Of a stretch of 64,000 nt of DNA, positions 1 to 63,404 are shown piece by piece; within the stretch, counting starts at the first letter, position 1; every line of letters begins with the position of its first letter. Both the position numbers and the translations under genes were made by a program. Source of the DNA: Octopus vulgaris (lineage: Eukaryota); NCBI GenBank assembly GCA_951406725.2, contig OX597820.1, forward strand, positions 21,328,001-21,392,000, written 5' to 3'. The notes under the pieces were generated by a model. That model was not told where the DNA came from. It searched no databases and saw only the letters and a program-made list of their open reading frames with translations.

Positions 1-977
<977 letters not shown>

Positions 978-1306
978 TCATCATCATCATCGTCGTTTAG
1001 CGTCCGTTTTCCATGCTAGCATGGGTTGGACGGTTCTACTGGGGTCTGTGAAGCCAGAAGGCTTCATCAGGCCCAGTCAAATCTGGCAGTGTTTCTACGG
1101 CTGGATGCCCTTCCTAACGCCAACCACTCCGTGAGTGTAGTGGGTGCTTTTTACGTGCCACCCGCACAGGTGCCAGACAGAGCTGGCAAACGGCCACGAA
1201 CGGATGGTGCTTTTTATGTGCCACCGGCACAAGGGCCAGGCGAGGCTGGCAACGGACACGAAACGGGGCGGTGCTGGCAACGGTCGCGAAACGGAAGGTT
1301 CTCTTA

Positions 1307-1598
1307 CATGCCACCGGCACTGGTAACACATCTGCAATTTCCATTGATCGATTTCCATTCTGATCCTCACTTGCCTCAACGGGTCTTCACAAGTAGAGTT
1401 TCGACATGCCACCGGCACTGGTAACACATCTGCAATTTCCATTGATCGATTTCCATTCTGATCCTCACTTGCCTCAACGGGTCTTCACAAGTAGAGTTTC
1501 GACATGCCACCGGCACTGGTAACACATCTGCAATTTCCATTGATCGATTTCGATTCTGATCCTCACTTGCCTCAACAGGTCTTCACAAGTAGAGTTTT
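1307..1598. repeat. 98-bp tandem triplication in the LINE 3' UTR
   Basis: Unit ACATGCCACCGGCACTGGTAACACATCTGC...CAAGTAGAGTTT starts at ~1307, ~1405 and ~1503, nearly identical. Confidence 0.93.
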
Positions 1599-1669
1599 GT
1601 GTCCCAAGAAGGGAAGGTATGCATACGTAGGCTGGCTCCATCCCAAGTAGAAGGCCACGGGTTATGGAC

Positions 1670-4003
1670 TCACTTGTCCTGCCGGGTCTTCTCACGCACA
1701 GCACACTTCCAGAGGACTCGGTCTCTAGTCATTTCCTCAGTGAGACCTAAAGTTCGAAGGTCGTGCTTCACCACCTCGTCCCAGGTTTTCCTGGGTCTGC
1801 CTCTTCCACAGGTTCCCTCAACCGCTAGGGTGTGGCACTTTTTCACACAACTATCTTCATCCATTCTCGCCACATGACCATACCAGCGCAATCGTCTCTC
1901 TTGCACACCACAACTGATGCTTCTTAGGTCCAGCTTTTCTCTCAAGGTACTTACACTCTGTCGATTATGAACACTGACATTACACATCCATCGGAGCATA
2001 CTGGCTTCATTTCTTGCGAGCTTACGCATATCCTCAGCAGTCACGGCCCATGTTTCACTGCCATGTAGCATGGCTGTTCGTACACACGCATCATACAGTC
2101 TGCCTTTCACTCTGTGCGAGAGGCCTTTTGTCACCAGCAGAGGTAAGAGCTCTCTGAACTTTGCCCAAGCTATTCTTACTCTAGCAGTTACACTTTCAGC
2201 ACACCCGCCCCCGCTACTGACTTGGTCACCTAGGTAACGGAAACTATCAACTATTTCTAGTTTTTCTCCCTGGAAAGTGACGGAAGTTGGTCTCAGAGCA
2301 TTTTCAGTGTTTATTGTTCCTGAGCATCTGCCACATACAAAAACCATCTTCCTAGTTAGCCTTCCTTTGACATTGCTGCACCTCTTATGTGTCCATAGCT
2401 TACACTTGGTGCATCTTATAGAGTTTCTACCTACACCTTTTCTACAGATCGAGCAGGGCCATCTACCTGAAGGCGTTTGTGATTTGTCTACCTTCCTACT
2501 GATTACGACTTTGGTTTTAGCTAGATTGACTCTGAGGCCCTTCGATTTTAATCCTTGTTTCCACACCTGAAACTTCTCCTCCAGTTCTGATAGCGACTCA
2601 GCAATTAGAGCAAGGTCATCAGCATAGAGGAGCTCCCAAGGGCATCCTGTCTTGAATTCCTCCGTTATTGCCTGGAGGACTATGATAAATAGGAGGGGGC
2701 TGAGTACTGAGCCTTGGTGGACCCCTACCTCTACCCGGAATTCTTCACTGTACTCGTTTCCAACCCTCACCCTACTAGCAGCGTCCCTATACATGGCCCG
2801 CACAGCTCTCACTAACCATTCATCTATCCCTAGTTTCCTCATTGCCCACCAGCTAAGGGATCGGGGGACCCTGTCGAAGGCTTTCTCCATGTCAACAAAA
2901 GCCAGGTACAGGGGCTTATCTTTGGCTAGGTATTTCTCTTGCAGCTGCCTTACCAGGAATATAGCATCAGTAGTACTTTTCCCTGGCACAAACCCAAACT
3001 GCATCTCATCTAAACTAACTCTCTCTCTAATTAGTTGGGCTATGACCCTCTCCGTAACCTTCATCACCTGATCCAACAGCTTGATACCTCTGTAGTTATT
3101 TGTATCTAGAGCGTCACCTTTACCTTTGTAGCAGTTGACTATTATGCTGCTACACCAGTCATTGGGTATGACTCCTTTGTGTATCACCTGATTAACTATA
3201 TGGGTGACTAGGCTATAGCCGATACTACCAGACATTTTGAGCATCTCTGCAGTGATTCCTGATGGGCCTGGGGCTTTTCCTGTCTTCATGCTTCTAATTG
3301 CCTTAGCTACCACGGAACTATCAACTCGGATAGCTGGTCCCTCTGTTGGGTCAACATTCGGCAGACTCTCTTTATCCCATTCATTTTCTTTATTCAGCAA
3401 ACTTTCATAGTGGCATCTCCAAACCTCTCTCTTTGCATCCTCATTTAGCGCAAGTGAACCATCTTCCATGCGAACACACTTCTCTCCTACCACATCACGA
3501 TTCTCTCTCACACACTGTCTTGCAACGCGAAACACCTCTAGTCTTTGGTCCTCACGGCGCAGAATATTGGCAAATTTTTTCTTATCTGCTTCCCCTCTGG
3601 CTAAATAAACCTGTCTCTTAGCTTCTCTTTTGGCAGTCTGATACAATTCCCTGCTACCCCCATTTTTCCAGACCTTCCAAGCCTGTCTCTTTTCTCTAAT
3701 AGCCCTGTCTACAATATTGTTCCACCACCACGTTATTCTAGGTCGAGAGGGGACTTTGCACCAGCCACAGATCTGGTCAGTGGCTCTCAGCAGGTTGTCC
3801 CTTAGAAACGTCCAGCTGTCTTCTACCCCCTGTGATGCTCTATCCCCTTCTACTTCGTCAGAGGCTTCAAGTAATATGTCTCTAAATCTCTGTCCATTTG
3901 CAGGATCTTTAAGCTTCCAGATCCTTCTTCTCCATATTGGTCGTCTTCTGGTTGTCCTCCTAGTCCTGATCCTAAAGTCACTAACTACCAGTCTATGTTG
4001 TGG
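1670..4003 (-). CDS. LINE ORF: end of the AP-endonuclease (QHRLVV), reverse transcriptase, inserted C4HC3 zinc finger and C-terminal domain
   Basis: RT motifs [61 protein letters not shown] and GRGRPRKTW. The frame stays open upstream of the called 658-aa ORF to ~4003 ([11 protein letters not shown]...WWWNN). Confidence 0.92.
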
Positions 4004-4007
4004 GGTA

Positions 4008-4751
<744 letters not shown>

Positions 4752-4859
4752 TGAAAAGAACGTTATATGATATAACATCAGAAGTAGCTTACAGAAAGAG
4801 TAGGGATATCAATAGTGAATGTTAAATATAAAGGAAATTAATGTTTAAATTATATATAA

Positions 4860-6380
4860 TGTTAGAGATTACTAAGTACTAAAGGTGTGTTTTTGCCAAT
4901 GTTTACATCTGTATGCTCGCTCTATAACCGTGATTACTAGGGGATTTTAGAAAAAATAATGAAAAATAATTCAGAATTACTGAGAAGACAGAATTCCTTG
5001 CCTTTGTCGTAAGGTATCGAGATTGAGTGAATCAACCATTTTAAGTGAAATTGTTCATTGTGGTCTTAGATCCCAAATTAGTTTGCTGAGACCGGTACTA
5101 TTACGTTTATTTCTACCTTTAAATGTTTGTAGTGATCCTATACAACGGCGCGCGCTCGCGCACCGTCCATAACCACCGGAAGAAGAACCCTTTTGCCTAC
5201 GTAGCAGTTAGCCGAGGCAAGGGGATGGTAAGACGTTGACCACCAGCGTCCAGCAAGCAGCGACTGAAGGCGACGGTCACCTATATTTTTTCTCCGTCCG
5301 AACTTGATTCTAGCAGCACCTTACCAAAAGGCCTTTAACCAAATTGTTGCAGACCACATCTTCTCCCTGTTCCGGACGCCATCTTTGACCAGTGTCGTTT
5401 TGCATTTGAACACTTTCTTATTTTACAGCGATAAGGTTCAGCACTGACACATTTATACCAAGGACATCAGATAACCACTTATTGTTACTGTTACCACATT
5501 AGAGAATAAAGTAGTATATATATCTTTTACGTCTGCGTCTTGTTGTTTCTGACTGGTAGAATTCTGGATTATTAAAGCAACGGCTAGTGATTGCCTCTTG
5601 TACCCCGAAAGTACAAGAGAAGATATTCGCACTCACAAGTTCGTTTCATGTTGAGTAATGGATAGAAATTCTTTTAGATAACTCTAACGATGTGCTTCCA
5701 ATGCAAAATCGTACTTTATTACGAGTACTGATTATACACTAGTATATAGAATTTTTAATCTAAGAGTTACTTGATAAAAACTTAATTCTGTTGGAATTGA
5801 CTTCAAATACAATAACCTTGTTAATAATATTTCTAGAGGGCTGGATGGCATTAGCTAAATTAATGTTAGTATTAGTAAATGTATTAATATTTAACTGGTT
5901 GATATTATGTGAAGTGATAATTTGTAAGAGATTTTTTTGTGTTGGAAAAACCGATCCTAACCATATGTGAATTGATAATAGAGTAATACCTAGAATTCTT
6001 TGGAAAATTCCTAACAATAGCTTGATGAAACAGCAGTGGGAGATTAGATTTAATTTGTCTCCCGTACGGAATTATTAACCAAATATTTTTACTAGTATTT
6101 ATAGCGTAATCATTTATGAAAGTGTTATGTTTACTTTTAGAACGATACTAGGGGATTAAATAAGAGTTATCTCCCTTCATCCGTTTTGCATCGGTGCATA
6201 AGTTATGTTTGTTATCAATAATTCTTTTACGACTAGAAATTTTATCTACATCATTGAATTTACAATTAGACTGAGTGAAATCAATGTAGAAGATTTTCTC
6301 TCTATAACCTGCTTTAATCACTTTTTAATTACTGCTTTTTTCACTTTTCTGAAGAGAAAATTGCATTGTTTATACCATTT
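4860..6380 (-). mobile_element. Degenerate Penelope-like element: RT C-terminus/linker and GIY-YIG endonuclease, interrupted by a solo LTR
   Basis: Manual minus-strand translation gives KNIWLIIPYGRQIKSNL..AIVRNFPKNSRYYSIINSHMVRIGFSNT, NSIY*C..FCIGSTSLELSKRISIHYST|FKGRNKRNSTGLSKLIWDL, LKWLIHSISIPYDKGKEFCLL and RCKH. These match PLE motifs as I recall them (IIWFNPPY, HFP..N..VKVSYS, YIG.T..FK.R..H, STELSK.IW.LK, KCRH). Contains stops and frameshifts. Confidence 0.8.
5128..5648 (+). mobile_element. Solo LTR, probably Ty3/Gypsy type, 521 bp
   Basis: TG...CA termini and a 4-bp TSD TGTT (5124-5127 and 5649-5652). GC/CpG-rich interior with AATAAA at ~5505. Removing it restores the Penelope frame HYST-FKG. 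Confidence 0.8.
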
Positions 6381-6633
6381 ATTCTTTTGAGTAATATCAG
6401 TAGAATTTCCGAAACATGTGTCGGAAGTAAAAATATTTGATTTACACCTGCGTTAAACTCCATTTATTTATTCATATATTATACAAAAAATTCCACGTAA
6501 ACACGAAGTTTCTACCTTTATAAACAAAGAGTTACAACTTCTTTACTTGTGAGATTTTTTGCTACCCTGGTAACTATTTATTTATTTTTTCCGTGTTAAT
6601 TGTTAACAAGGCAAAAATACACTCATCTATTTA

Positions 6634-6685
<52 letters not shown>

Positions 6686-6759
6686 TGTGTGTGTGTGTAT
6701 GTATATATATAAAGCATTGGTATGTTGAAAATTTTCTCCCATATTCATTATCCCAAAAT

Positions 6760-6800
<41 letters not shown>

Positions 6801-7409
6801 TTGTATGTATACTCATAGTTATATATACATATATATTACAGAGTAGGCATCGAAAGGAGTGTTGTGAAATAAACAAACATTCAGATCAGTTTGTACATGT
6901 TTGGGACATATTTGACCTGTAAGGCCATTTTTGTTGCAGTTTGCCATGGAGAAAAATGTCATTCGAGGCAGATGTTAAAAGACCAACAGCAATTTCAGAG
7001 CATCCCCTACGGCCCAATATATGCATTTCAAGTTCCTTCACTACAATCACCACCACATACTAAGTGGGACAGCACTGAGAGGATTTTAGAAGTATTGAAT
7101 CTTTATAGAAGATCAGTAGAAGCTTTCTATTGATTGTGTCATAATCATCAAGGTCAAATAAAGTATATAGAAGACACACCAAAAAGTGTTGTAAAACAAA
7201 CTTTTAGATCAGTGCAAATGTTTTTGGGAGTTACTTAATTTATAAAAGAACCATTTTCACTGCATTTTAGTAATACCATTTGCCTAAAGTGAGAATTTTC
7301 TTCGCAGGAAACCATAGTTAAAGCGGTCTAGAAAAGCACAGAATTATAGTAGAAATACTTATAGTTCTTCATATCCTTATTAAAAATAAAAGAAAAACAA
7401 ATTCATTTT

Positions 7410-24379: not shown

Positions 24380-26562
24380 GTAATAATAATAATAATTATA
24401 CATCAGAAGGAAAACTTCAAAAAGTTATTGAATAATCTGTTAAATAAAACTTATCTATTGGAGCATTTTCTTTTAACACAACACATTATGCCACCAAACT
24501 ATTAATATGTATATAAGTAGTATACAACTCTAACTCAATGTCATATGATTTCCTGCTCACTTTCTTACTTTACTAAAATAAAGATTTCCTTCTATGTACC
24601 TTTTGTATATGTACTTTATGAAGTACTAAAAGTAGCACTATAGCAAAATTCATTTTAATTTAATTACAATGATTTAAAGAATTGTATGCAAAAGTATTCT
24701 TCAATTTTTGCAGATAAATATCTGTAAAATTAAGTAGAAAAACTCAAACTATTTTTTAAACTTCAGATTAAGAAGGATTTGTTAAAACAAAATAGTTATA
24801 GATTATTGAAATTAGTTTTTTTATACATAATTTTATTCAACTATTTGAAATATTAAAAAAATAAGATATAAAATCATCTATTCTGTGACAGTATTATTCT
24901 CTTTCATAGTAGCATAATAACTTGGATTAACTTTCTTAATGAACTTAATATTTTTTATTTTGTCCTTGCATTTTGTTTGAAAGGTTTTATTGTTTTTACT
25001 TAATTTAGAACATGATAATTTTGTATTAAAATAATGATATAATATTAACTTAATTTTCTTATTGAGAAATATTCAATTTATTTAATTAATTAGATGATGA
25101 TTGGTTATGTTATTTCTCCAAACTTAACTCATTACTGTGATGAAGCACATAAAAATAATTGTGAACCATAAATAATAAACAAAGCAAATGACTGACGGTG
25201 ATTAAGAACAATTCTAAGTGAAAAATTAAGTTCTATGAATAATTTATGAAAAAGTTTATTTACGAAACAAAATACAATTGTTGAAATTTAAGCAAATTTT
25301 AATAGCACAGGTCAATTCAGTATCTTTCAGAATATTAATTAAATTAATACATAAAATTGATCTAACTGATCAACAGAATCTTTTCTTAGTATTCTTATTA
25401 AGTTCTTCAGTTTTTAACTGAGATATTTAAATAATTTTTTTTTAATATTCATTGCAGATAAATTTCAAGGCTGAAGGAAAGTTTACTAGGAAGGAGTATA
25501 GGGAAAAAAAAATGAAGGTTAATGAATTACACTTAAATTTCTTCCTTCAAATAAATCAACCGAAAGAAGAAAACTTTAGTCAGTTCTCTATTCATTTCTC
25601 TATATTTTTTTTCTTAGTTTTTCAGCCGTGCAAACTAGAAGGCAAATTGTTATTAGAATTCACAAACTGCTTTTAGTTTATTTTTCCTTACAAGATAAAG
25701 AAATCAGAATTTTTTTCGTGCTAAAGATGAACATATAAATAAAAAATGCATATAAGAAATTTAATAGATTTACTCCATTAAATCTAATCATTGAAATAAT
25801 TAGATATTAGATTCAATGTGTTGTTATATATGCATGAAGTAAGTTTTAATGTAAACTTAGTGAATTCAGGTAAAAAAAAAATACTTAAAAACAAGATCTT
25901 TCTTGTTTTTCCATTTACCTTCTAGAAAGTGCACAGCCTCAGAATTGCTAAATTAATTTGCAAAATATTTTATTTTCATTTTTTTTTATTTGTTATTTTA
26001 GAATATATAAATAGAATTCTTTTCCTTAACTACTAGTGTTGCCTGTACCATGCCAGACACCATTATTAGTAGCAATATTACCACCTTTATTTTTCGCACT
26101 TTTTATATACTACTTCAGATATCTCAGTAGAAAACCTGAGATATTTTTATTGGGACAATGATAATGCTATTCAACCATTAATCACATTTAACAGTTTTAC
26201 TTCTGATAAATTCAGTATTTATGTGTGTGTGTGTGTTTGTGTGTGTGCATATATGATTTGTATTAGGGTTACCTTCATTTTTAATAAATACTAAAGGTTT
26301 GGCAAATACAAAAGAGATCTTTAAAAGGATTGTCTTTTCTCCTTTTTGTTTTTTTGTTAAAAAAAAGTCAGTATTAATATTAATAAATATTGTCAGAAAA
26401 TATAGACTAGTAGAGTTAGGCCAATTGAACCAACATCAAGTTGGAAAACTTAAATAATTAATTGTATTTTAAAATGACTTTTTATTTTAAGATTTTTTGT
26501 ATTTTGCATCATATATATATATATATAAGAACATTTTTAGATTAAATCTCCATTAAACATAC

Positions 26563-26805
26563 TTTTGTGTGTTGTCCTGCTGGATGAAGATGAAGATTGA
26601 ACAGTTGTAGTTGTTCTGATTGTTCCATCCTCACTAGTAGAAGTAGTAGTGCGTGAGGAATGTCTGCTGCTACTTTCCTCGTTGTCAAGAGAATTAAGCA
26701 TATCATCAAGATTTTTGGTACGTCTTGCAACACGGGTAATTCTGCTCTGTTTCTGCTTAGACAAATCTAAGCCAATTGGTTTTTGCTTTATATCACCTAT
26801 GCGAT
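26563..26805 (-). CDS. unc-22: Twitchin exon: unique basic then Ser/Thr-rich linker between post-kinase Ig2 and Ig3
   Basis: ttttctttttatag acceptor, A|gtatgt donor, 243 nt, phase 1 to 1, open (RIGDIKQKPIGLDLSKQKQSRITRVARRTK...SSSSSSRTTHK). Read-through reaches TAA at 26539-26537. Confidence 0.85.
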
Positions 26806-28384: not shown

Positions 28385-28565
28385 TTTCAACATTCACTCG
28401 GCATGAACTCTGAACCTCTCCTAGTGAGTTTTCTGCAATACATGTGTATTTACCAGCATCAGAAAGTTCAGCTGTGTGTACTTCTAATGAACAGATTCCA
28501 TATGAATAAGTAACCATATAATGATCACCAGTCTTTATTTCTTTACCATCTTTAAGCCATGTGAC
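28385..28565 (-). CDS. unc-22: Twitchin exon: second half of post-kinase Ig2 (VTWLKDGKEI...SDAGKYTCIAENSLG...VNVE)
   Basis: tttgcag acceptor, A|gtaagt donor, 181 nt, phase 0 to 1. Confidence 0.96.
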
Positions 28566-29972: not shown

Positions 29973-30114
29973 CTTTGGATGTGGCAAAGCTGCGACTGTA
30001 CACAGAAGCTTGAATCCAATACCAAGCTGAATAATTCTTTCACGAAGATCAAAAGTAAATGAAGGAGGAATATCCTTTGGTTTCTCAACTGCTCTCTCTT
30101 GTGACACACGCTTC
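29973..30114 (-). CDS. unc-22: Twitchin exon: linker end and first half of post-kinase Ig2 (KRVSQERAVEKPKDIPPSFTFDLRERII...PHPK)
   Basis: ttcaatag acceptor, AAG|gtaaat donor, 142 nt, phase 2 to 0. The P-F-F-LR motif is typical of this twitchin/projectin Ig. Confidence 0.93.
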
Positions 30115-32872: not shown

Positions 32873-33045
32873 GTTCGACTTTAAGTATAGCAACTTCTTC
32901 ACGGCTACCAAAAGAGTTTTCTGCTCTTACAACATATTCACCCTTGTCGTCAACTTTCAGTCTGCTGATCTTCAGTTCATATTCGTTGTTATTGTATTTC
33001 TGCATATGTTTTACACTCTGAGTGAGTATGGAATCTTCCTTTGCC
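32873..33045 (-). CDS. unc-22: Twitchin exon: second half of post-kinase Ig1 (AKEDSILTQSVKHMQKY...DDKGEYVVRAENSFG...KVE)
   Basis: Poly-T ctaatag acceptor, C|gtaagt donor, 173 nt, phase 2 to 1. Confidence 0.96.
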
Positions 33046-35657: not shown

Positions 35658-35760
35658 CAAAGTAGGTATCATATATCTGGTACTCCTTGGGTCTGTGTTT
35701 ACGCAATGAACTGAAGTTAGCAATACGACCAATGGCGGGCATTGGTTGAGGCCAATCAGC
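35658..35760 (-). CDS. unc-22: Twitchin exon: autoinhibitory tail, part 2 (ADWPQPMPAIGRIANFSSLRKHRPKEYQIYDTYF)
   Basis: ttatctag acceptor, G|gtaagg donor, 103 nt, phase 0 to 1. Diagnostic twitchin regulatory motif GRIANFSSLRKHRP. Confidence 0.97.
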
Positions 35761-37264: not shown

Positions 37265-37311
<47 letters not shown>

Positions 37312-37328
37312 TTTACATTAATACTTAC

Positions 37329-37406
37329 GTATTTTTCTTTGATCTTCTGCCTGATTTTGTTGTATCGACTTGATGGAATTCTGTGTGTAAGATTACTGTG
37401 ATCACC
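37329..37406 (-). CDS. unc-22: Twitchin exon: autoinhibitory tail, part 1 (GDHSNLTHRIPSSRYNKIRQKIKEKY)
   Basis: ttgttatag acceptor, TAC|gtaagt donor, 78 nt, phase 0 to 0. IPSSRY.KIR..IK.KY twitchin motif. Confidence 0.97.
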
Positions 37407-40234
37407 CTATAACAAGATAATTGGGTAAAAAAAAAACAAAAACAAAAGAAAACAATTGAATAAATGCACCAAATTTTCTTTTCTGTGGGCCAAAATTATA
37501 ATTTTTGTTTTTATTACAGAACTATTTTAAATGCCATACTATTGTTTGTTTCTTTATCTAGAAGCATGATTTAGTTCTTATTTTAGTCATAAAATAATAT
37601 CTTGTTGCTTATCTAATTTCAATGTATTTTCATTATTCTGCTTCAAATTAAAAGCAAAGAAATTATTTGTATCAATATCTCAATCCCATTGCTACCGTTC
37701 TTTCAGTTAGTTATGTTTGTAGTCACGATGGAACATTTCCATCATTTGGTCATCAGTTATTTCCTTTTCATTTAGTACATACACATATATAAGTACAAGA
37801 CTTATTGATAAATTAATCCAATAAATTATTTCAATGTTACTACACTATCCCATATATAGAAGCCCAAAATAATAGAAAAGTATATTAAAAACAGTCTAAA
37901 ATAGAATTACATTTCTGAAAAGGAAACAAAACATTGTAGTTATCATTTATTATTTTAAATATATATTTTGCTAAGAACAGAAACAATATATTACTTCTTA
38001 AAGACAAATAAATATATAACTTTTTTTTTCAAAGATAATTAATTAAAAAAATATGATGCTTCAGATGCATCCATCTTAAAATATATATTTTTCCAATAAC
38101 ATTAACAAAAAGAATAATAAACGAATATATAATGAAATTTGTAGAAAGTATTACAGTCTTAAGGAAAGCCAATATTTTATCATATATTTTTTGATTATGA
38201 AACAATTTAAAATCAAATACTTTGATTTTATTCTTTCCTTTCTACTCTGTATAAATATTATAAATCAACTCAGACATAAAACTACATTCAGATATATATA
38301 TATAGTTTTAAGATATTTTCATAAGTAGGCTAAAGTTCTCCAATATTCTGGAACTGGTTTAAAAGAAACTCTAGATAAATCACTAGTATATATATATATA
38401 TATGCATCCATTTGGAAATAAACATATATATTATTGAGAAACAATTATTATTATCAATAGTCAGAAATATTCTGATTCTTTTCATTGTAACTTAATATGA
38501 TGTTTGTGATGATGATGATGATGACAATATTAAAAAAGCATGATGATTCGATGGATGTCATTATGATGATGTTTTATGAAAAGACACTGGTGATAAGACA
38601 GTGATGATATAATGTTCATGTTCATCATGTTAATTATAATACCACTATTCATAATAGTGTTAGGAATTTGATCAACTAAATAACAATTTTTTTTTCTATT
38701 GGTTTTAGAAAACTGCTACATTACTAAGTTACCACTGCGGAATGACAAATATTAATGAGATTAGTAGTGACGAAGCGAACTATTGACAGGAAACATGCAG
38801 CAATTATTATTAAGTGTTCAATAATATGTGTTTTTTTTTTCGTGACATCAGTGTGCAATCAACACAAATGATACATAACTGCTGAAACAAAATTATAATT
38901 TCAATTTATATTGTCTCTAACAAACTTTAACAATTAGCAAACAAGGGTAAATCTATCCTTAACTGTCTAATTATATATCCTCCTTTTTATAGTTGTTAAT
39001 GTTAGTGCCTTATTTATTTTACAAACTAATTTTATATCACTGTTTTGTTTTCAGTAGGGTAACTGTTTCATTTATATACAAACTAAGGCAGTGGTGAAAT
39101 ACCTACTTCAAACATTAAGTATTGAATCATAGATTTGGTTATTATTTTATAGGAATCTTGTTGATTTCCAATGGCATAGAGATAGTGACTCCTATGGGTT
39201 AATAAGCATAGTTTAAACCATAACAAAATACTGGTAAATTAAGTATTTTGTTTTACTAAGAAAATTGTAACTTATCTGCATTCTTTTAACTAAACTTATA
39301 CTTGCAGTATAACATTTAAATTTTTAAATATCTATTTCAATATAGATGTGTATATATATATATAATTATGTTCAATTTATACTCAAATTTACAATGTGTA
39401 AATTCCCCAATTTGAAAACTCTTAAATTCAATCAAATTATTTTGTCATCTATATATACCGCAAGCTTCAATAATCAACCAGTAAAAATATTGATCTATAC
39501 ACTGGTAATTATGATTAACTATCATTTAAGTATAAGTTAGAGTAATGTTTAAACTTGGCATTTTTTATTTCAATATGTGTCATCATCATTCAACATCGAA
39601 ATGATTTAAGAGAAATGACAGTTTTAGAAAGTTTCAGAGAATCTATTAAGGACTTCTAAAGCATAAAATACCCAATGAAAAATAATAATAAAAAAAGCTA
39701 TTTGTTGGACATAAAAATAATTTGTCTGGACAATGATACTAATTCATAGCATTTTGCTCTTAGACATGCACAATTTCTCTCTCTCTCTATCTATCTCACA
39801 CACACATACATACACTGATATATATATATATATATATATATAACTGATATATATATATATGTTGCAGCATAAACCACATCTTTCTGTCTCAACTTGAAAA
39901 ACTGTGAAACTGCTTAAATCTTTAAATATAATAAAAAATCTTAACACTTGCTCACATACATACAAAGACATATGCATACCTCAGAGACATACATACACAC
40001 AACCACATTTACATAACTTTTCAACATGTACCTGAGAAAATTCCCATCTTAAATAACATTGTCATCACAATGAAATCATTAACAAATATAACTTTTATGA
40101 AATATTGTGTTAAGAGTTTCTGGACAGATAAGTTCAGCTTTGAACATAAAACCTTAACCCAAATAGGAATTGGATACAGAGCTACTTAAATCCATTAACT
40201 TCGATCTGATTTTTTTAAAGTAATTATTACTTAC

Positions 40235-40429
40235 AAGTCCCGAAAACCTGGTGTAAATCCCCGTGGAATGTATCCCAGTGGAATGTATTCCTGTGGAATG
40301 TATCCTTGTGGAATGTTTCCAATTGGAATGTACCCATGTGGAATGTCGGTCGAGCCAAAGATTTTCTGTAGAATTGTAGTTGCTGTGGTTGTTAAGGATA
40401 TATTCATCACTTTGATCACTGATCATCAT
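40235..40429 (-). CDS. Candidate alternative twitchin exon (cassette or alternative first coding exon), 65 aa with an HSTGI-type 5-aa repeat
   Basis: tgtttttcaaag|ATGATG... open frame ...GGACTT|gtaagt, 195 nt, phase 0 to 0. The last three repeat units differ only at synonymous positions in this frame. Confidence 0.6.
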
Positions 40430-40679
40430 CTTTGAAAAACACATTTTAAAGTATTTATAGAATGTATAGAGATAAGGTATTATGTAAGCACTGAATGTCT
40501 TCCAAATGTGAGTGGGGTTAAGTTTATCATTTGTGGATATTAATTTAGGGTTTTTTTCTTTTTTAAGTGATCTTAAAATTATGATAAATATTTACTTTAC
40601 TTGAGTATCATAACAAACTAGAATTTCCAATAACTAGATTAATATCTTCATATATATTTTTTATAATTAAATGTTTATC

Positions 40680-40724
<45 letters not shown>

Positions 40725-45579: not shown

Positions 45580-48441
45580 CATACATGCATATATATATAT
45601 ATAGAGAGAGAGAGATATATATATTTTACTTGTTTTATTCAGTACTCATGACTAAAATATGTCATATCATATTATCATAATAAATGAAGCATTGATGTTA
45701 ATTAAATATTGCTTTCATATGTTAACATGTAGGAGAAAACTAGCTCAGTATTATATTTTCAAAATAGTACTTTTATTGTTACTTATTTATTTTTTGATTT
45801 AAAAATTATTCTTTTATTCTTTCATTCATTTCAGCCAACTGGCTATTGTCATGCTGTAGCACTATCGGGGTCATCTTGATCAATGACACGGTTTTGCTCG
45901 TAACTTATAAAATCATGACTCTTTGCTTTCTTTTCTGTGTATCTGCTTTCAATTCCCCAAATCAGTTTTATTCTCAGATAGTCTTTGTATGTTATTTACA
46001 ACCTACATACATAACAGAAACAGTATTTACCCCAGAGGTCAACTGCCACGATCAGTCCCTTGATGGTTACACCTCTCACTTCTTAAAGAAATACATGGCT
46101 GTTGTGAATATGTCCTCCTTACAAGGTTGGGTACTCCAAACACACCCACCTAGTAGTACCTTTGAATAACTAAAAGTCGAGTGGCGACCCTTTAATCCTG
46201 GCACAGATACTGTCTCTAATGCCAGTAGCATGACAAAATTCACCCGGCCTTCACTGTCAGGTAGTTGTTGATAGGAAGGGCATTTATCTGTAAGAAATAC
46301 TGCCAAAATAAAAAGGAGCAAATGATGGAAGTGCATAGCATACTCTTTAAATTCCACCACAGACAACATGTCTCCTACTGGCTGTGTGATATGATACACC
46401 AGCCACACTGTGAGGTGTGAAGCTGAGAGGATGTGAATCCAGCTAAAAAAATTGTCTCAAATAAGCAAAATCAGAAAAAATGAAAGGAATGAACAGTCTA
46501 GAGAGGATTCTTTTGATTCACTTCAGACAACCTCACTAATTCTGGTGGCATGATATAATGCACCTAGTCCACACCGTAAAGTGATTGATGATATGAAGGA
46601 CATCCAGCCATCAAAAACATTCCAAAAATAACTGCATTCATGACTTCAGAGATGACCCCGTTTTCTCTGTTGCAGCATGTAACTAGATGATGAGAGAATG
46701 CACCAAGGGGAAAAATACTGTTGTGATCCATCCAAAACCATGCTAGCATGGATTGATGTGTACAAAGTGATGATCATGTAAGAATGCATTATATATAAAC
46801 TTACTATAACAGAAGCATGTACATGTATATGTAATCCAAAAATACTTTGCTATTTTATTCTAATTAGTAATGATAAAAGTTTGTTAAGTTAAGAGAAGCA
46901 GTGTATATAACTAATAAGTCATAAAACATATTGTTTTATATCGTTTGTTGGAGGAATTTCGGCTTTTTCATTTAATAAATTTCGTATTTATTTTTGACAG
47001 AAACATTTAAGTGATACGACTATTATTTCAGTTTCCATAGATTTTCGTTATATTTTAAAATTATAGATATAAACTATTTGTTTAATACCTATGTAAGTGT
47101 TCCTAGTTATATTATTTAAAGAACGATATCATATAATGAATATATATCGTTCCACATATTTGTTTTGTTTATCTTGCCCTTTATCAATTCACAATCTAAA
47201 TTAGAAAAGAATTAATACTGTTAGTACAATTAATTTCTCGTCACATTTTGATTCAATACTGCAAAACTGCAAAAAGAATCAAATGAATATTAAGTAAAAT
47301 AGAAATAGTTCAGTAGATTATTACGTATATCCTGTATTTCTCTAGCAGCTCATTAGCATTAGGGATATACATAAAACACTGAGAAAGATGCTCCTTGAGA
47401 AAATTAGATCAGGGTTTTAGTGTGTAGACATTTTCAAGTATAGAATTTTTTTTTTAAAGATATACAATTAAGATCAGCAAAAACAGTATATCAAAAACCA
47501 ATGGTTTGTAAAACTTCTGAACACAGTTTTTAAGGGAATGATCAGAAGAGGCAGTAGGGGTAAAAACTTAGCATGAAGTCTATACCTTCCCTCGGTCAGT
47601 ATTTTGGACTTCCTCCTCGAAAACCTGGAAAAAGTGAAAAACGAACAATAGCATGCCAGTATCAATGTTCTGGCCTATACATTGTTGCTGGGTCCTCAAA
47701 ATCAAATGCAATATGTCCCATACACTTAAACCTTATTCCCCCTTTCATAAAAATAATGTCAATATGAACTCTTTTGATAACATTATTTTGATATATACTA
47801 AAAATAAAATTTAACTCCTGTTCATTTAAAATTATAAGGCTGTAATTTTTATTCTATTTATGAGAATATCTGAATATATCTATATTTGTTTCTACTTTAG
47901 AAGATAATTTTTTTACATTGCATGCTATAGTGGTTCATACAGAGCTCAGTTACAGAAGGCTGACAGACAAATATCCTAAATAAAGTTACTATTCAATTAT
48001 AGTTGACCAATGAAATTCTAGATTTTTCATTTAATCTTAAGTAATGTTACAATATCTTAAACCTAAAAATTAATTAAACTAGTCTCCTTGTCTGCAAATA
48101 ATTTCATTAATCAACGTATAAAAATATATAGAAAAAACTATCTTACTAAACAAATATATCAGTTATAGAAATATAGTAGGATGAAAAATTCCAGTCACTT
48201 AAGATTATTTAATACAGTCAGTAGACAAAATCTCCCTCCAGGAGTGTTTAAAGTCTAAAAACAACAAACAAGAGAAATAACCCCAACAAAATCAAATAAG
48301 TGAAATTTGTAGAAAATATAGAAGATGCCTATGGAAGTAGATCATATCTTTAAAGTCAACTGGTGAAAACAATGGACATGTTTCAGTTTTATTAGATCTC
48401 CATATTCTATGCTGTTGACAAGACTAACACTCATCACAATA

Positions 48442-59909: not shown

Positions 59910-59955
59910 CTTCAGCCAAGCATGATCAATTGCTTCATGAACAGTTAACCTTTTC
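59910..59955 (-). CDS. unc-22: Twitchin 46-nt exon: kinase subdomain XI end (KRLTVHEAIDHAWLK)
   Basis: tttcttttcag acceptor, AAG|gtaggt donor, phase 2 to 0. Invariant subdomain XI Arg and H.WL motif. Confidence 0.95.
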
Positions 59956-59975: not shown

Positions 59976-60335
59976 CCAATGAACATGTCTTAACAATTAA
60001 CGCTTAAGACCTAACAATGAACATGTCTTAACAGTTAACACTTAACACTTAACAATGAACATGTTAATTAACACTTAACAATGAACATGTTAATTAACAC
60101 TTAACAATGAACGTGTCTTAAAAATTAATACTTAACACCTAACAATAAACATGTCTTAACAATTAACACCTAACACTTAATAATGAACATGTTAATTAAC
60201 ACTTAACAATGAACATGTCTTAAAAATTAATGCTTAACACCTAACAATAAACATGTCTTAACAATTAACACCTAACACCTAACACTTAATAATGAACATG
60301 TTAATTAACACTTAACTATGAACATGTTTTAACAC
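59976..60335. repeat. AT-rich minisatellite built from AACAATGAACATGT(C)TTAA and TTAACAC modules
   Basis: About 11 irregular units of ~27-43 bp containing the palindromes AACATGTT and GTTAATTAAC. Confidence 0.9.
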
Positions 60336-60606
60336 TGTTAAATATATATTTTCTTATAGCTTTGTGGGGTTTTTAAAGGGGTCTTTTATTTTTAACTTGT
60401 TTCAGTCATTATACTGTGGCCATGCTGGGGCAGTACCTCGAACGATTTTTAGTTGAATGAATCAAACCCAGCATTTTTTCTTTTTAAAGCATGCCACTTA
60501 GCCTATCAGTCTCTTTTGCTGAACTGCTAAGTTATGGGGACATAAGCAGACCAACATTGGTTGTCAAGCAGTCATGGGGACAAACATAGACACAAACACA
60601 TGCACG

Positions 60607-61499: not shown

Positions 61500-62157
61500 G
61501 TTCATCATCATCATTGTTCGACCGTGGTCGAGACAATGGAATTTACCATGCTACGCCAGACTTCACGGTCCATCATGGCATTACGGAGGTCCTGTTGTTG
61601 GATGCCTGTATCCCTGAAGGTTACATCAGGGTAGGAGAGTGTGCGCCCTCTGGTATTGCGAGTAGATGGCTTCCAGAGGAGAAGAGTAGAAATTACCTCT
61701 TTTTCAGCTCTACAACAATATCCAGCAAACTGGACTCTCCTACCTTTCACAAGAGATGACACAGGTGGTAGTTTCCCATATATTTGCATTTTGGTTGGAT
61801 GGCGCTTCCACGAGAGATTTTGAGCTCTCATAAGGAGGCGAGTGTAGGTTCCATCCAACCACCTCTCAAGCTTCTTTGATAACGTCCAGGTTTCTGAGCC
61901 ATATAGTAGAATTGGTTCAACTGTGGCTTTGAAGATTTCAAGTTTGAAGTCTCTACTTAGATTTGATGACCAGATCTTATGCATGTCATTACAGGCTGAC
62001 CAGGCCATACCCTTTCTAGTTAGAAAGTCTTTTCCAGATAATGATATGTATGACCCAAGATATTTGTAATCAGAAACCATATTTAAGGGCGCATTGTTGA
62101 GAGTATGGATGATGCAATCACTGTTGGACAGGCACTTGTTTATGTAGTTTATGTTAG
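61500..62157 (-). mobile_element. 3' fragment of a second RTE-like LINE family (RT C-terminal region)
   Basis: ORF 61511-62080 has YKYLGS, ILLYGSETWTL, R..FAGYC.R and DREVWR. The stop runs straight into a (TGA)n tail. Confidence 0.85.
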
Positions 62158-62242
62158 GTAGTTAACTATTGCCTAGTCTATGCATATAAACAAGGATAGG
62201 AATGAGTAAAATAACAGAATTTTAAAAGAATGAGAATACTTA

Positions 62243-62425
<183 letters not shown>

Positions 62426-63204: not shown

Positions 63205-63404
63205 AAAACATAGGCAAGTACTCCAACTGCCCACATGTCTGTGTAGAAGCCGACAGCTTCTCTGTCAACAATTTCTGGAGCGGCAAACTCTGCAGTGGCT
63301 GTTGTAACTTTAACGATCTCATCGGGATTCAATTTTGTTGCCAGACCAAAATCTATGATTTTAACTTGTGTGCTTTTCTTTGTTTCACACATGATGTTTT
63401 CTGG
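63205..63404 (-). CDS. unc-22: Twitchin exon: kinase subdomains VIb-IX (PENIMCETKKSTQVKIIDFGLATKLNPDEIVKVTTATAEFAAPEIVDREAVGFYTDMWAVGVLAYV); the gene continues beyond the window
   Basis: ttacag acceptor, TT|gtaagt donor, 200 nt, phase 0 to 2. DFG, APE and DMW motifs with the twitchin-type activation segment VKVTTATAEF. Confidence 0.97.

Follow-up and report, generated by a model that had tools for sequence, protein, structure and literature searches.

A conserved exon and a microexon between the kinase and the autoinhibitory tail of Octopus vulgaris twitchin

Does the large intron that separates the kinase of octopus twitchin from its autoinhibitory tail contain an exon, and if so, what would its inclusion do to the enzyme? 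The tail of twitchin kinase (CRD) is a pseudosubstrate that docks into the sites for ATP and peptide; the N-terminal linker (NL) restrains the hinge, and each of the two alone inhibits partially (PMC4472019, PMC8523150, bioRxiv 10.64898/2026.05.18.725903). Release of the CRD is described as mechanical or as mediated by partners such as MAK-1, and is called unexplained (PMC4472019). Here we explore a stretch of 64,000 nucleotides of Octopus vulgaris DNA (contig OX597820.1, hereafter the window), in which an earlier note, made from the letters alone, had pointed out an open segment of 195 nt inside this intron.

The gene at this locus is twitchin. Its kinase domain is nearest to twitchin kinase, as the C-lobe exon (62244-62396) finds Aplysia twitchin 1KOB (residues 245-293, E 5.8e-23) as its best match in the PDB, followed by 1KOA and 3UTO, with DAPK chains coming after those. 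The exon with the DFG and APE motifs (63205-63404) was recognized by translation and splice sites. The last kinase-core exon (59910-59955) has 46 nt, ends in HAWLK with a phase-0 donor, and its letters form the loose end behind 37408 in contigs of the RNA runs X1, X5 and X14 described below. The first exon of the tail (37329-37406) begins in phase 0 and matches 1KOB 310-335 (E 7.7e-11); the second CRD exon (35658-35760) was found by tblastn with twitchin homologue P0041, and its letters form the loose end before 37328. Upstream stretches (L006-L009) contain the exons for Fn3, NL and the N-lobe, and the catalytic motifs are intact, the Gly-loop, the AxK lysine and HLD being found in L006. Ig exons lie downstream. 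This order, Fn3-NL before and CRD-Ig after the kinase, is as expected for twitchin. The gene lies on the minus strand of the window, as do all exons, frames, repeat units and signals given here. The intron of 22.5 kb runs from the kinase-core exon (to 59910) to the CRD exon (from 37406), and both its borders are in phase 0.

The part of the gene downstream of the tail showed some further features. The Ig domain that first follows the kinase is succeeded by an exon (29973-30114) that encodes RKRVS, placed where the D2 phosphorylation site lies in the mussel; none of eight candidates among proteins of 115-2000 aa carried this D2-like exon, a size range that full-length twitchin exceeds. The exon ending at 32873 and the exon at 30114 are out of phase, hence a small unmapped exon is probable, which leaves the hinge unaffected. 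A likely second alternative last exon of twitchin is found at 26540-26805: it is bounded by AG, its phase fits that of the donor at 28385, and its frame comprises about 89 Ser/Thr-rich codons and a TAA, with AATAAA some 50 nt beyond. More Ig exons follow at 18540-14300.

The segment of 195 nt is located at 40235-40429. Its borders (AAG before 40429, GTAAGT after 40235), length, open phase-0 frame and translation within the 22.5-kb intron are exactly as the earlier note gave them. It encodes 65 residues, 25 of which are His, Ser or Thr, and the peptide is predicted to be disordered. Openness of the frame alone proves nothing, since 20 stretches of at least 65 open codons occur on the same strand of the intron. 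Composition is more informative: GC content is 41% in the segment, compared with 25% upstream and 27% just past the donor, while other exons of the gene have 36-42%. This exon-like GC is a stronger sign of coding than the silent sites of the repeat discussed below. Splice sites were ranked with a crude matrix, built from nine hand-picked exons of the twitchin gene with one junction among them out of phase. By this measure the acceptor at 40429 is weak (rank 400 of 1233 intron AG sites) and the donor at 40235 takes rank 40 of 1168 intron GT sites. GTAAGT is the donor of five of the nine mapped exons; the intron contains six such sites, and the one at 40235 is alone in having a long open phase-0 frame before it. 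The chance of an in-phase GTAAGT within 91 codons is 0.024 (0.13 for any GTRAG), and the fall in GC from 41% to 27% at this point has P=0.04 in a Fisher test, or P=0.009 against coding GC. The donor looks real because GTAAGT is common in the gene, its in-phase occurrence is improbable and GC drops there; that it is used is suggested by these letters.

Part of the segment consists of six 15-bp units (40257-40346, 81% matches), reading HSTWV, HSNWK, HSTRI and three times HSTGI. The observation that the last three units differ at silent sites only is correct, but it does not extend to the whole repeat. All six units together show 11 changes in the twitchin frame, 5 of them silent, where a fraction of 0.27 is expected (P=0.14), with 3/12 and 0/12 in the other two frames, and the coding selection that had been read from this pattern is not borne out by it. 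The +1 frame over the repeat (40234-40422) gives IPQGY-like units, which resemble the Pro-Gln-Gly-Tyr repeats of cephalopod rhodopsin tails, and ends at the TAA inside the GTAAGT donor. It was set aside as an unlikely coding frame, as it meets two stops at the acceptor. A mobile element was ruled out, since the stretch is single-copy in the genome (G000). No second copy of the peptide was found in G000 beyond satellite look-alikes, namely unrelated 15-bp satellites at L011 1505-1668 and L012 1497-1817 with weak peptide matches to the repeat. Pfam assigned no family to the 65-residue peptide, its read-through form or the +1 frame, and the ESM Atlas returned no match for the peptide at 0.9 (best feature score 0.80, model pLDDT 0.35).

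Conservation was assessed in related octopuses. Among proteins of 35-114 aa the peptide has a sole match, A0A0L8HMF4 of O. bimaculoides (P0002), which is listed on its own as an uncharacterized protein of 96 aa. It is identical to the window frame 40444-40157 in 95 of 96 positions: in 65/65 residues of the exon and 25/26 past the donor. The frame is thereby conserved in a related octopod, and the match suggests that A0A0L8HMF4 is a piece of twitchin and not a gene. Neutral divergence was taken as 3.75%, from organism B, in which 50 of 1333 intron letters differ. At this rate 5.4 changes are expected in the exon of the O. bimaculoides protein and none is seen (P=0.004). For the part past the donor 2.1 changes are expected, and P is 0.35 at 3.75%, 0.22 at 4.8% and 0.02 at 9.6%. 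The split of O. vulgaris and O. bimaculoides is placed at 13.3-33.5 Mya, which with 0.0036 per My gives a divergence of at least 4.8% (PMC13282606). Of the 23 words of 40200-40460, 21 occur in organism B, against an expectation of about 7 (P ~0.001); this test is under mild selection because the run list was ranked by share of words. Organisms C-F, with 0.87-1.00 of the words, were left out of the conservation tests, C being about 0.5% from the window. Judged by these comparisons, constraint falls on the 195 nt, acting on the protein or on RNA signals. Peptide conservation is known within Octopus only, and the protein form is a prediction from sequence. None of three candidates among proteins of 115-2000 aa carried the peptide, full-length twitchin being larger than this range. 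A HMMER search over cluster representatives yielded 150 kinases; 10 clusters were looked up, none with a named cephalopod. No insert of such size occurs in 13 twitchin-like homologues picked from these 150 matches, in which the HxWL-to-IGR distance is 34-47 residues, compared with 40 here.

Transcription was evaluated with assembled reads. There were 24 sequencing runs listed, none of them recorded as RNA, with 14 RNA-like holders of 0.87-1.00 of the words, and four runs were aligned to 37310-40680: X1 and X5 (organism A, two studies), X8 (organism B) and X14 (organism C). These four very probably derive from RNA, since splicing in their main contigs falls precisely on the ends of exons. In Logan, each contig is a path without branches through a simplified k=31 graph (bioRxiv 10.1101/2024.07.30.605881), and those of X1 show a 30-letter overlap. 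Rare paths are dropped from such simplified graphs and molecules are not phased. No ranking was based on contig depth, which was 10.6-22 for the exon, 2.6-12.5 for the remaining contigs in the intron and 212-7027 for main contigs.

The main form splices the kinase directly to the tail, as the join 59910->37406 is found in X1, X5 and X14 (three of four runs). Inclusion appears to be a minor form. In X5 (one of four runs) a 396-nt contig on 40102-40432 does not enter the exon from the intron: it joins 47586 to 40429, so the acceptor at 40429 is used. The upstream partner is a previously unreported microexon of 39 nt (47586-47624), 7 kb upstream of the 195-nt exon, which the earlier note had missed. 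It encodes the 13 acidic residues VFEEEVQNTDRGK, is open in phase 0 and flanked by phase-0 borders, and has a long pyrimidine tract, a CAG acceptor and an AAG|GTATAG donor. Its acceptor ranks first of 1233 sites in the intron with the crude nine-exon matrix, and the microexon is first of 497 phase-0 candidates. Both exons are multiples of three and open in phase 0; the chance of such openness is 0.02 for the 195-nt and 0.45 for the 39-nt exon. The assignment is based on the loose letters of the X5 contig: it has 65 of these, 36 of the microexon and 29 others, and the 30 that are printed match the microexon at 47589-47618. Since the X5 main contig ends 29 letters inside the kinase exon, and equal numbers of 29 letters are what a k=31 graph gives at a branch after one shared G, this contig-end arithmetic strongly implies that X5 also splices the kinase exon to the microexon (59910->47624).

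Other contig ends are suggestive. The kinase exon and the microexon have a common suffix of four letters. The exon contig of X14 stops one unmatched letter past 40432, which, resting on this one unseen letter and the four-letter suffix, hints that kinase exon and microexon both feed 40429. Likewise the main contig of X8 begins two unmatched letters past 37408; these two unseen letters and the same suffix hint that both exons feed the tail exon, and by this contig end the microexon may occur alone between kinase and tail exons. Of the two joins named in the earlier note, 59910->40429 is only hinted at, by the end of the X14 contig, and 40235->37406 occurs in none of the four runs, in which no contig starts at 37406. 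The donor at 40235 is crossed unbroken in all four (X1 39861-40644, X5 40102-40432, X8 39945-40566, X14 39951-40432), and in X5 by the very contig that is spliced upstream. In X1 and X8 the acceptor at 40429 is also crossed unspliced, to 40644 and 40566 respectively. The spliced X5 contig and the identical O. bimaculoides peptide support the proposal that the segment codes in the frame of twitchin. It is a genuine exon of the Octopus vulgaris gene, transcribed, spliced at its acceptor and conserved.

The missing join from 40235 to 37406 has to be read against the state of the RNA and of the assemblies. Contigs extend over a large part of the 2.8-kb intron that follows the exon, past both of the AATAAA sites given below and up to the tail exon, and in X1 an unspliced contig spans the acceptor of the tail exon; unspliced RNA is therefore present. 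Because contigs run past the AATAAA sites to the tail exon, read-through of the donor can be unspliced RNA. In addition, SPAdes-like cleaning removes a low-depth join of 60 letters into a path that is hundreds of times deeper, and can thus erase joins of this kind. The upstream connectors of X14 have apparently gone, which fits such a loss. With unspliced RNA present and low-depth joins removed by assembly cleaning, the absence of this join is not decisive.

We lean, with a little better than even confidence, towards the 195-nt exon and the microexon being minor in-frame cassettes at the kinase/CRD hinge, which would add 13, 65 or 78 predicted-disordered residues and loosen the CRD brake. For the cassette of 65 residues that had been proposed, the used acceptor, the skipping form and the frame hold, while the join to the tail is missing in four of four runs and the donor is read through in the same four. 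On its short tether the CRD would act as a pseudosubstrate and block both the ATP and the peptide site, and a longer hinge would likely lower its effective concentration. At 0.36 nm a residue, 78 extra residues would add slack of about 28 nm contour length, re-docking of the CRD after stretch would slow with the longer tether, and the inserted residues would add Ser/Thr sites. The NL would go on restraining the kinase despite the insert. Whether the exon serves as cassette or is read through, the kinase core would be uncoupled from its brake.

The reading through of the donor, a further option that the earlier note had not considered, leads to a different product. Past GTAAGT the phase-0 frame stays open for 26 further codons (40154-40234, covered by contigs of all four runs) up to a TAA stop at 40156-40154. 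The window's read-through ORFs of 96 and 91 aa have no entries in the protein collection. The nearest AATAAA thereafter is at 39564-39569 and the next at 39018, both of them candidates only. An exon entered at 40429, with its donor ignored, stop at 40154 and intronic polyadenylation, would be an alternative last exon and give a tail-less kinase, which we consider possible but rather unlikely. Its product would end 91-104 residues past the core, without CRD, D2-like site and C-terminal Ig domains, and would be a half-released kinase whose C-terminal side is no longer anchored. Use of the donor in none of the four runs and its read-through in all of them agree with this, as do both AATAAA sites and the O. 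bimaculoides model, which reads through to the same stop with 95/96 identity; the gene moreover seems to have another alternative last exon (26805-26540). In C. elegans, about 35% of full activity is left in a construct that has the NL and lacks the CRD (bioRxiv 10.64898/2026.05.18.725903), and DRP-1beta provides a precedent (PMC3050894). However, the exon has a perfect in-phase donor with a GC step at 40235, contigs continue past both AATAAA sites to the tail exon, and with the divergence as measured, conservation past the donor does not reach significance. The O. bimaculoides model stems from automatic calling of a single ORF, whose start moreover falls within the acceptor region. A module common to a paralogue, as in DRP-1beta, found no match in Pfam, in the ESM Atlas at 0.9 or, beyond satellite look-alikes, in G000. 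If the last exon were nevertheless used, octopus would remove CRD, D2-like site and C-terminal Ig anchor by a conserved last exon and so possess a ladder of kinases (plain, +13, +65/+78 and tail-less), in which the strength of the brake and the response to stretch would be graded to suit different muscles of arm, sucker or skin, a tentative idea that is rather unlikely. The same stop at 40154 could also serve unproductive splicing, in which inclusion stalls removal of the 2.8-kb intron and the premature stop leads to nuclear retention or decay, tuning the level of twitchin mRNA. Contigs of the four runs cover 10 to 29 of the 30 bins of the stretch, the unspliced X1 contig crosses the acceptor of the tail exon, and X5 and X14 cover sequence downstream of the exon and none upstream; the missing upstream cover amounts to two bins in patchy runs, though, which is no evidence alone. 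A decay element needs neither frame-keeping exons nor 65 residues unchanged across species, and both are present here, so that we find this explanation decidedly unlikely.

Two further explanations are very improbable. One was put forward in the earlier note: by analogy to telokin, an intronic promoter would drive a product of tail and Ig domains that lacks the kinase, and its coding sequence would begin in this exon. The exon does start with ATGATG and has a TATAAA 25-30 nt upstream, contigs of X1 and X8 reach unspliced to 40644 and 40566, and UNC-89 has three promoters (PMC13242403). Yet X5 splices the ATGATG start to an upstream exon, which contig ends link to the kinase exon, and this disfavours the proposal, though the exon may have a dual use. 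It also requires the join 40235->37406, seen in none of the four runs; in an intron as rich in AT as this one TATAAA is frequent (six within 39381-38910), and the peptide was found in no protein of 115-2000 aa, which is a weak argument. The other, which we find hardly credible, is splicing noise, arising at a cryptic site because the intron is very long and heavily transcribed, with the repeat an ordinary minisatellite. The weak acceptor, the 15-bp satellites at other places of the genome (L011, L012), whose letters translate into similar peptides, and the detection of the direct microexon-exon join in one run of four would fit noise, whereas conservation at protein (P=0.004) and word level (P ~0.001), exon-like GC, frame-keeping lengths and the top-ranked microexon acceptor oppose it.

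Compared with known systems, the main octopus transcript joins the core (to 293) and CRD (from 310) just as in Aplysia 1KOB, which belongs to the same family as C. elegans 1KOA and 3UTO (NL-kinase-CRD). Unlike what the octopus exons would offer, neither an insert nor a natural tail-less form was found in the twitchin homologues compared or the literature searched. For C. elegans TTN-1 kinase, Flaherty and colleagues reportedly described in 2002 alternative splicing in the autoinhibitory region, with two forms that differ in activity. This is the closest analogue of the in-frame cassettes, but it concerns a nematode paralogue, and the octopus change lies before the CRD and can be much longer. 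Telokin is a product of MYLK, and resembles the octopus case in that an intronic exon with an ATG precedes the C-terminal Ig domains; it differs in that the octopus exon is spliced to upstream exons. DRP-1beta, or DAPK2beta, from the same wider kinase family, has an alternative exon after the catalytic domain that replaces the regulatory tail, as read-through would do in octopus (PMC3050894). That exon is ZIPk-like and conserved in vertebrates and its protein has been detected (PMC3050894), in contrast to the octopus peptide, which has no family, is found in Octopus only and is possibly internal. Splicing at the border of kinase and regulatory tail is hence already known. Tissue-specific forms of molluscan twitchin are likewise represented by the Mytilus D1 isoforms (Kusaka et al. 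2008, as cited in PMC6059360), although D1 is situated between Ig7 and Ig8, close to the N-terminus and a long way from the kinase, unlike the octopus hinge (PMC12040844). In Drosophila projectin the isoforms reported all keep the kinase (PMC2120353). For cephalopods, twitchin isoforms are invoked for catch-like holding and, in the accessible text of the source, not described (PMC6059360). No description of cephalopod twitchin isoforms was found in the openly accessible literature searched; automatic RefSeq models may already contain both exons.

Work on release of the twitchin CRD so far relies on engineered truncations, and natural splice forms would offer constructs that vary in tether length. 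With a kinase near the solved Aplysia enzyme, the octopus forms would make tether length testable against activity and force response, and they would provide a handle on the tuning of muscle types in cephalopods.

Some observations concern sequence outside the hinge exons. A compound tandem array with periods of 7, 26, 38, 102 and 128 occupies 59977-60336, just before the point where the last kinase exon has its acceptor. A kinase intron contains an open frame of 216 codons (61514-62161) that resembles the end of a LINE reverse transcriptase. The mitochondrial ND2 and ND3 of G000 agree in every letter with proteins named Octopus vulgaris. In the mitochondrial contig (G000:C227, L002) COX1 and COX2 show frame breaks, which are likely assembly errors, and the 40 COX1 matches in the genome are mostly nuclear copies, spread over 30+ nuclear places.
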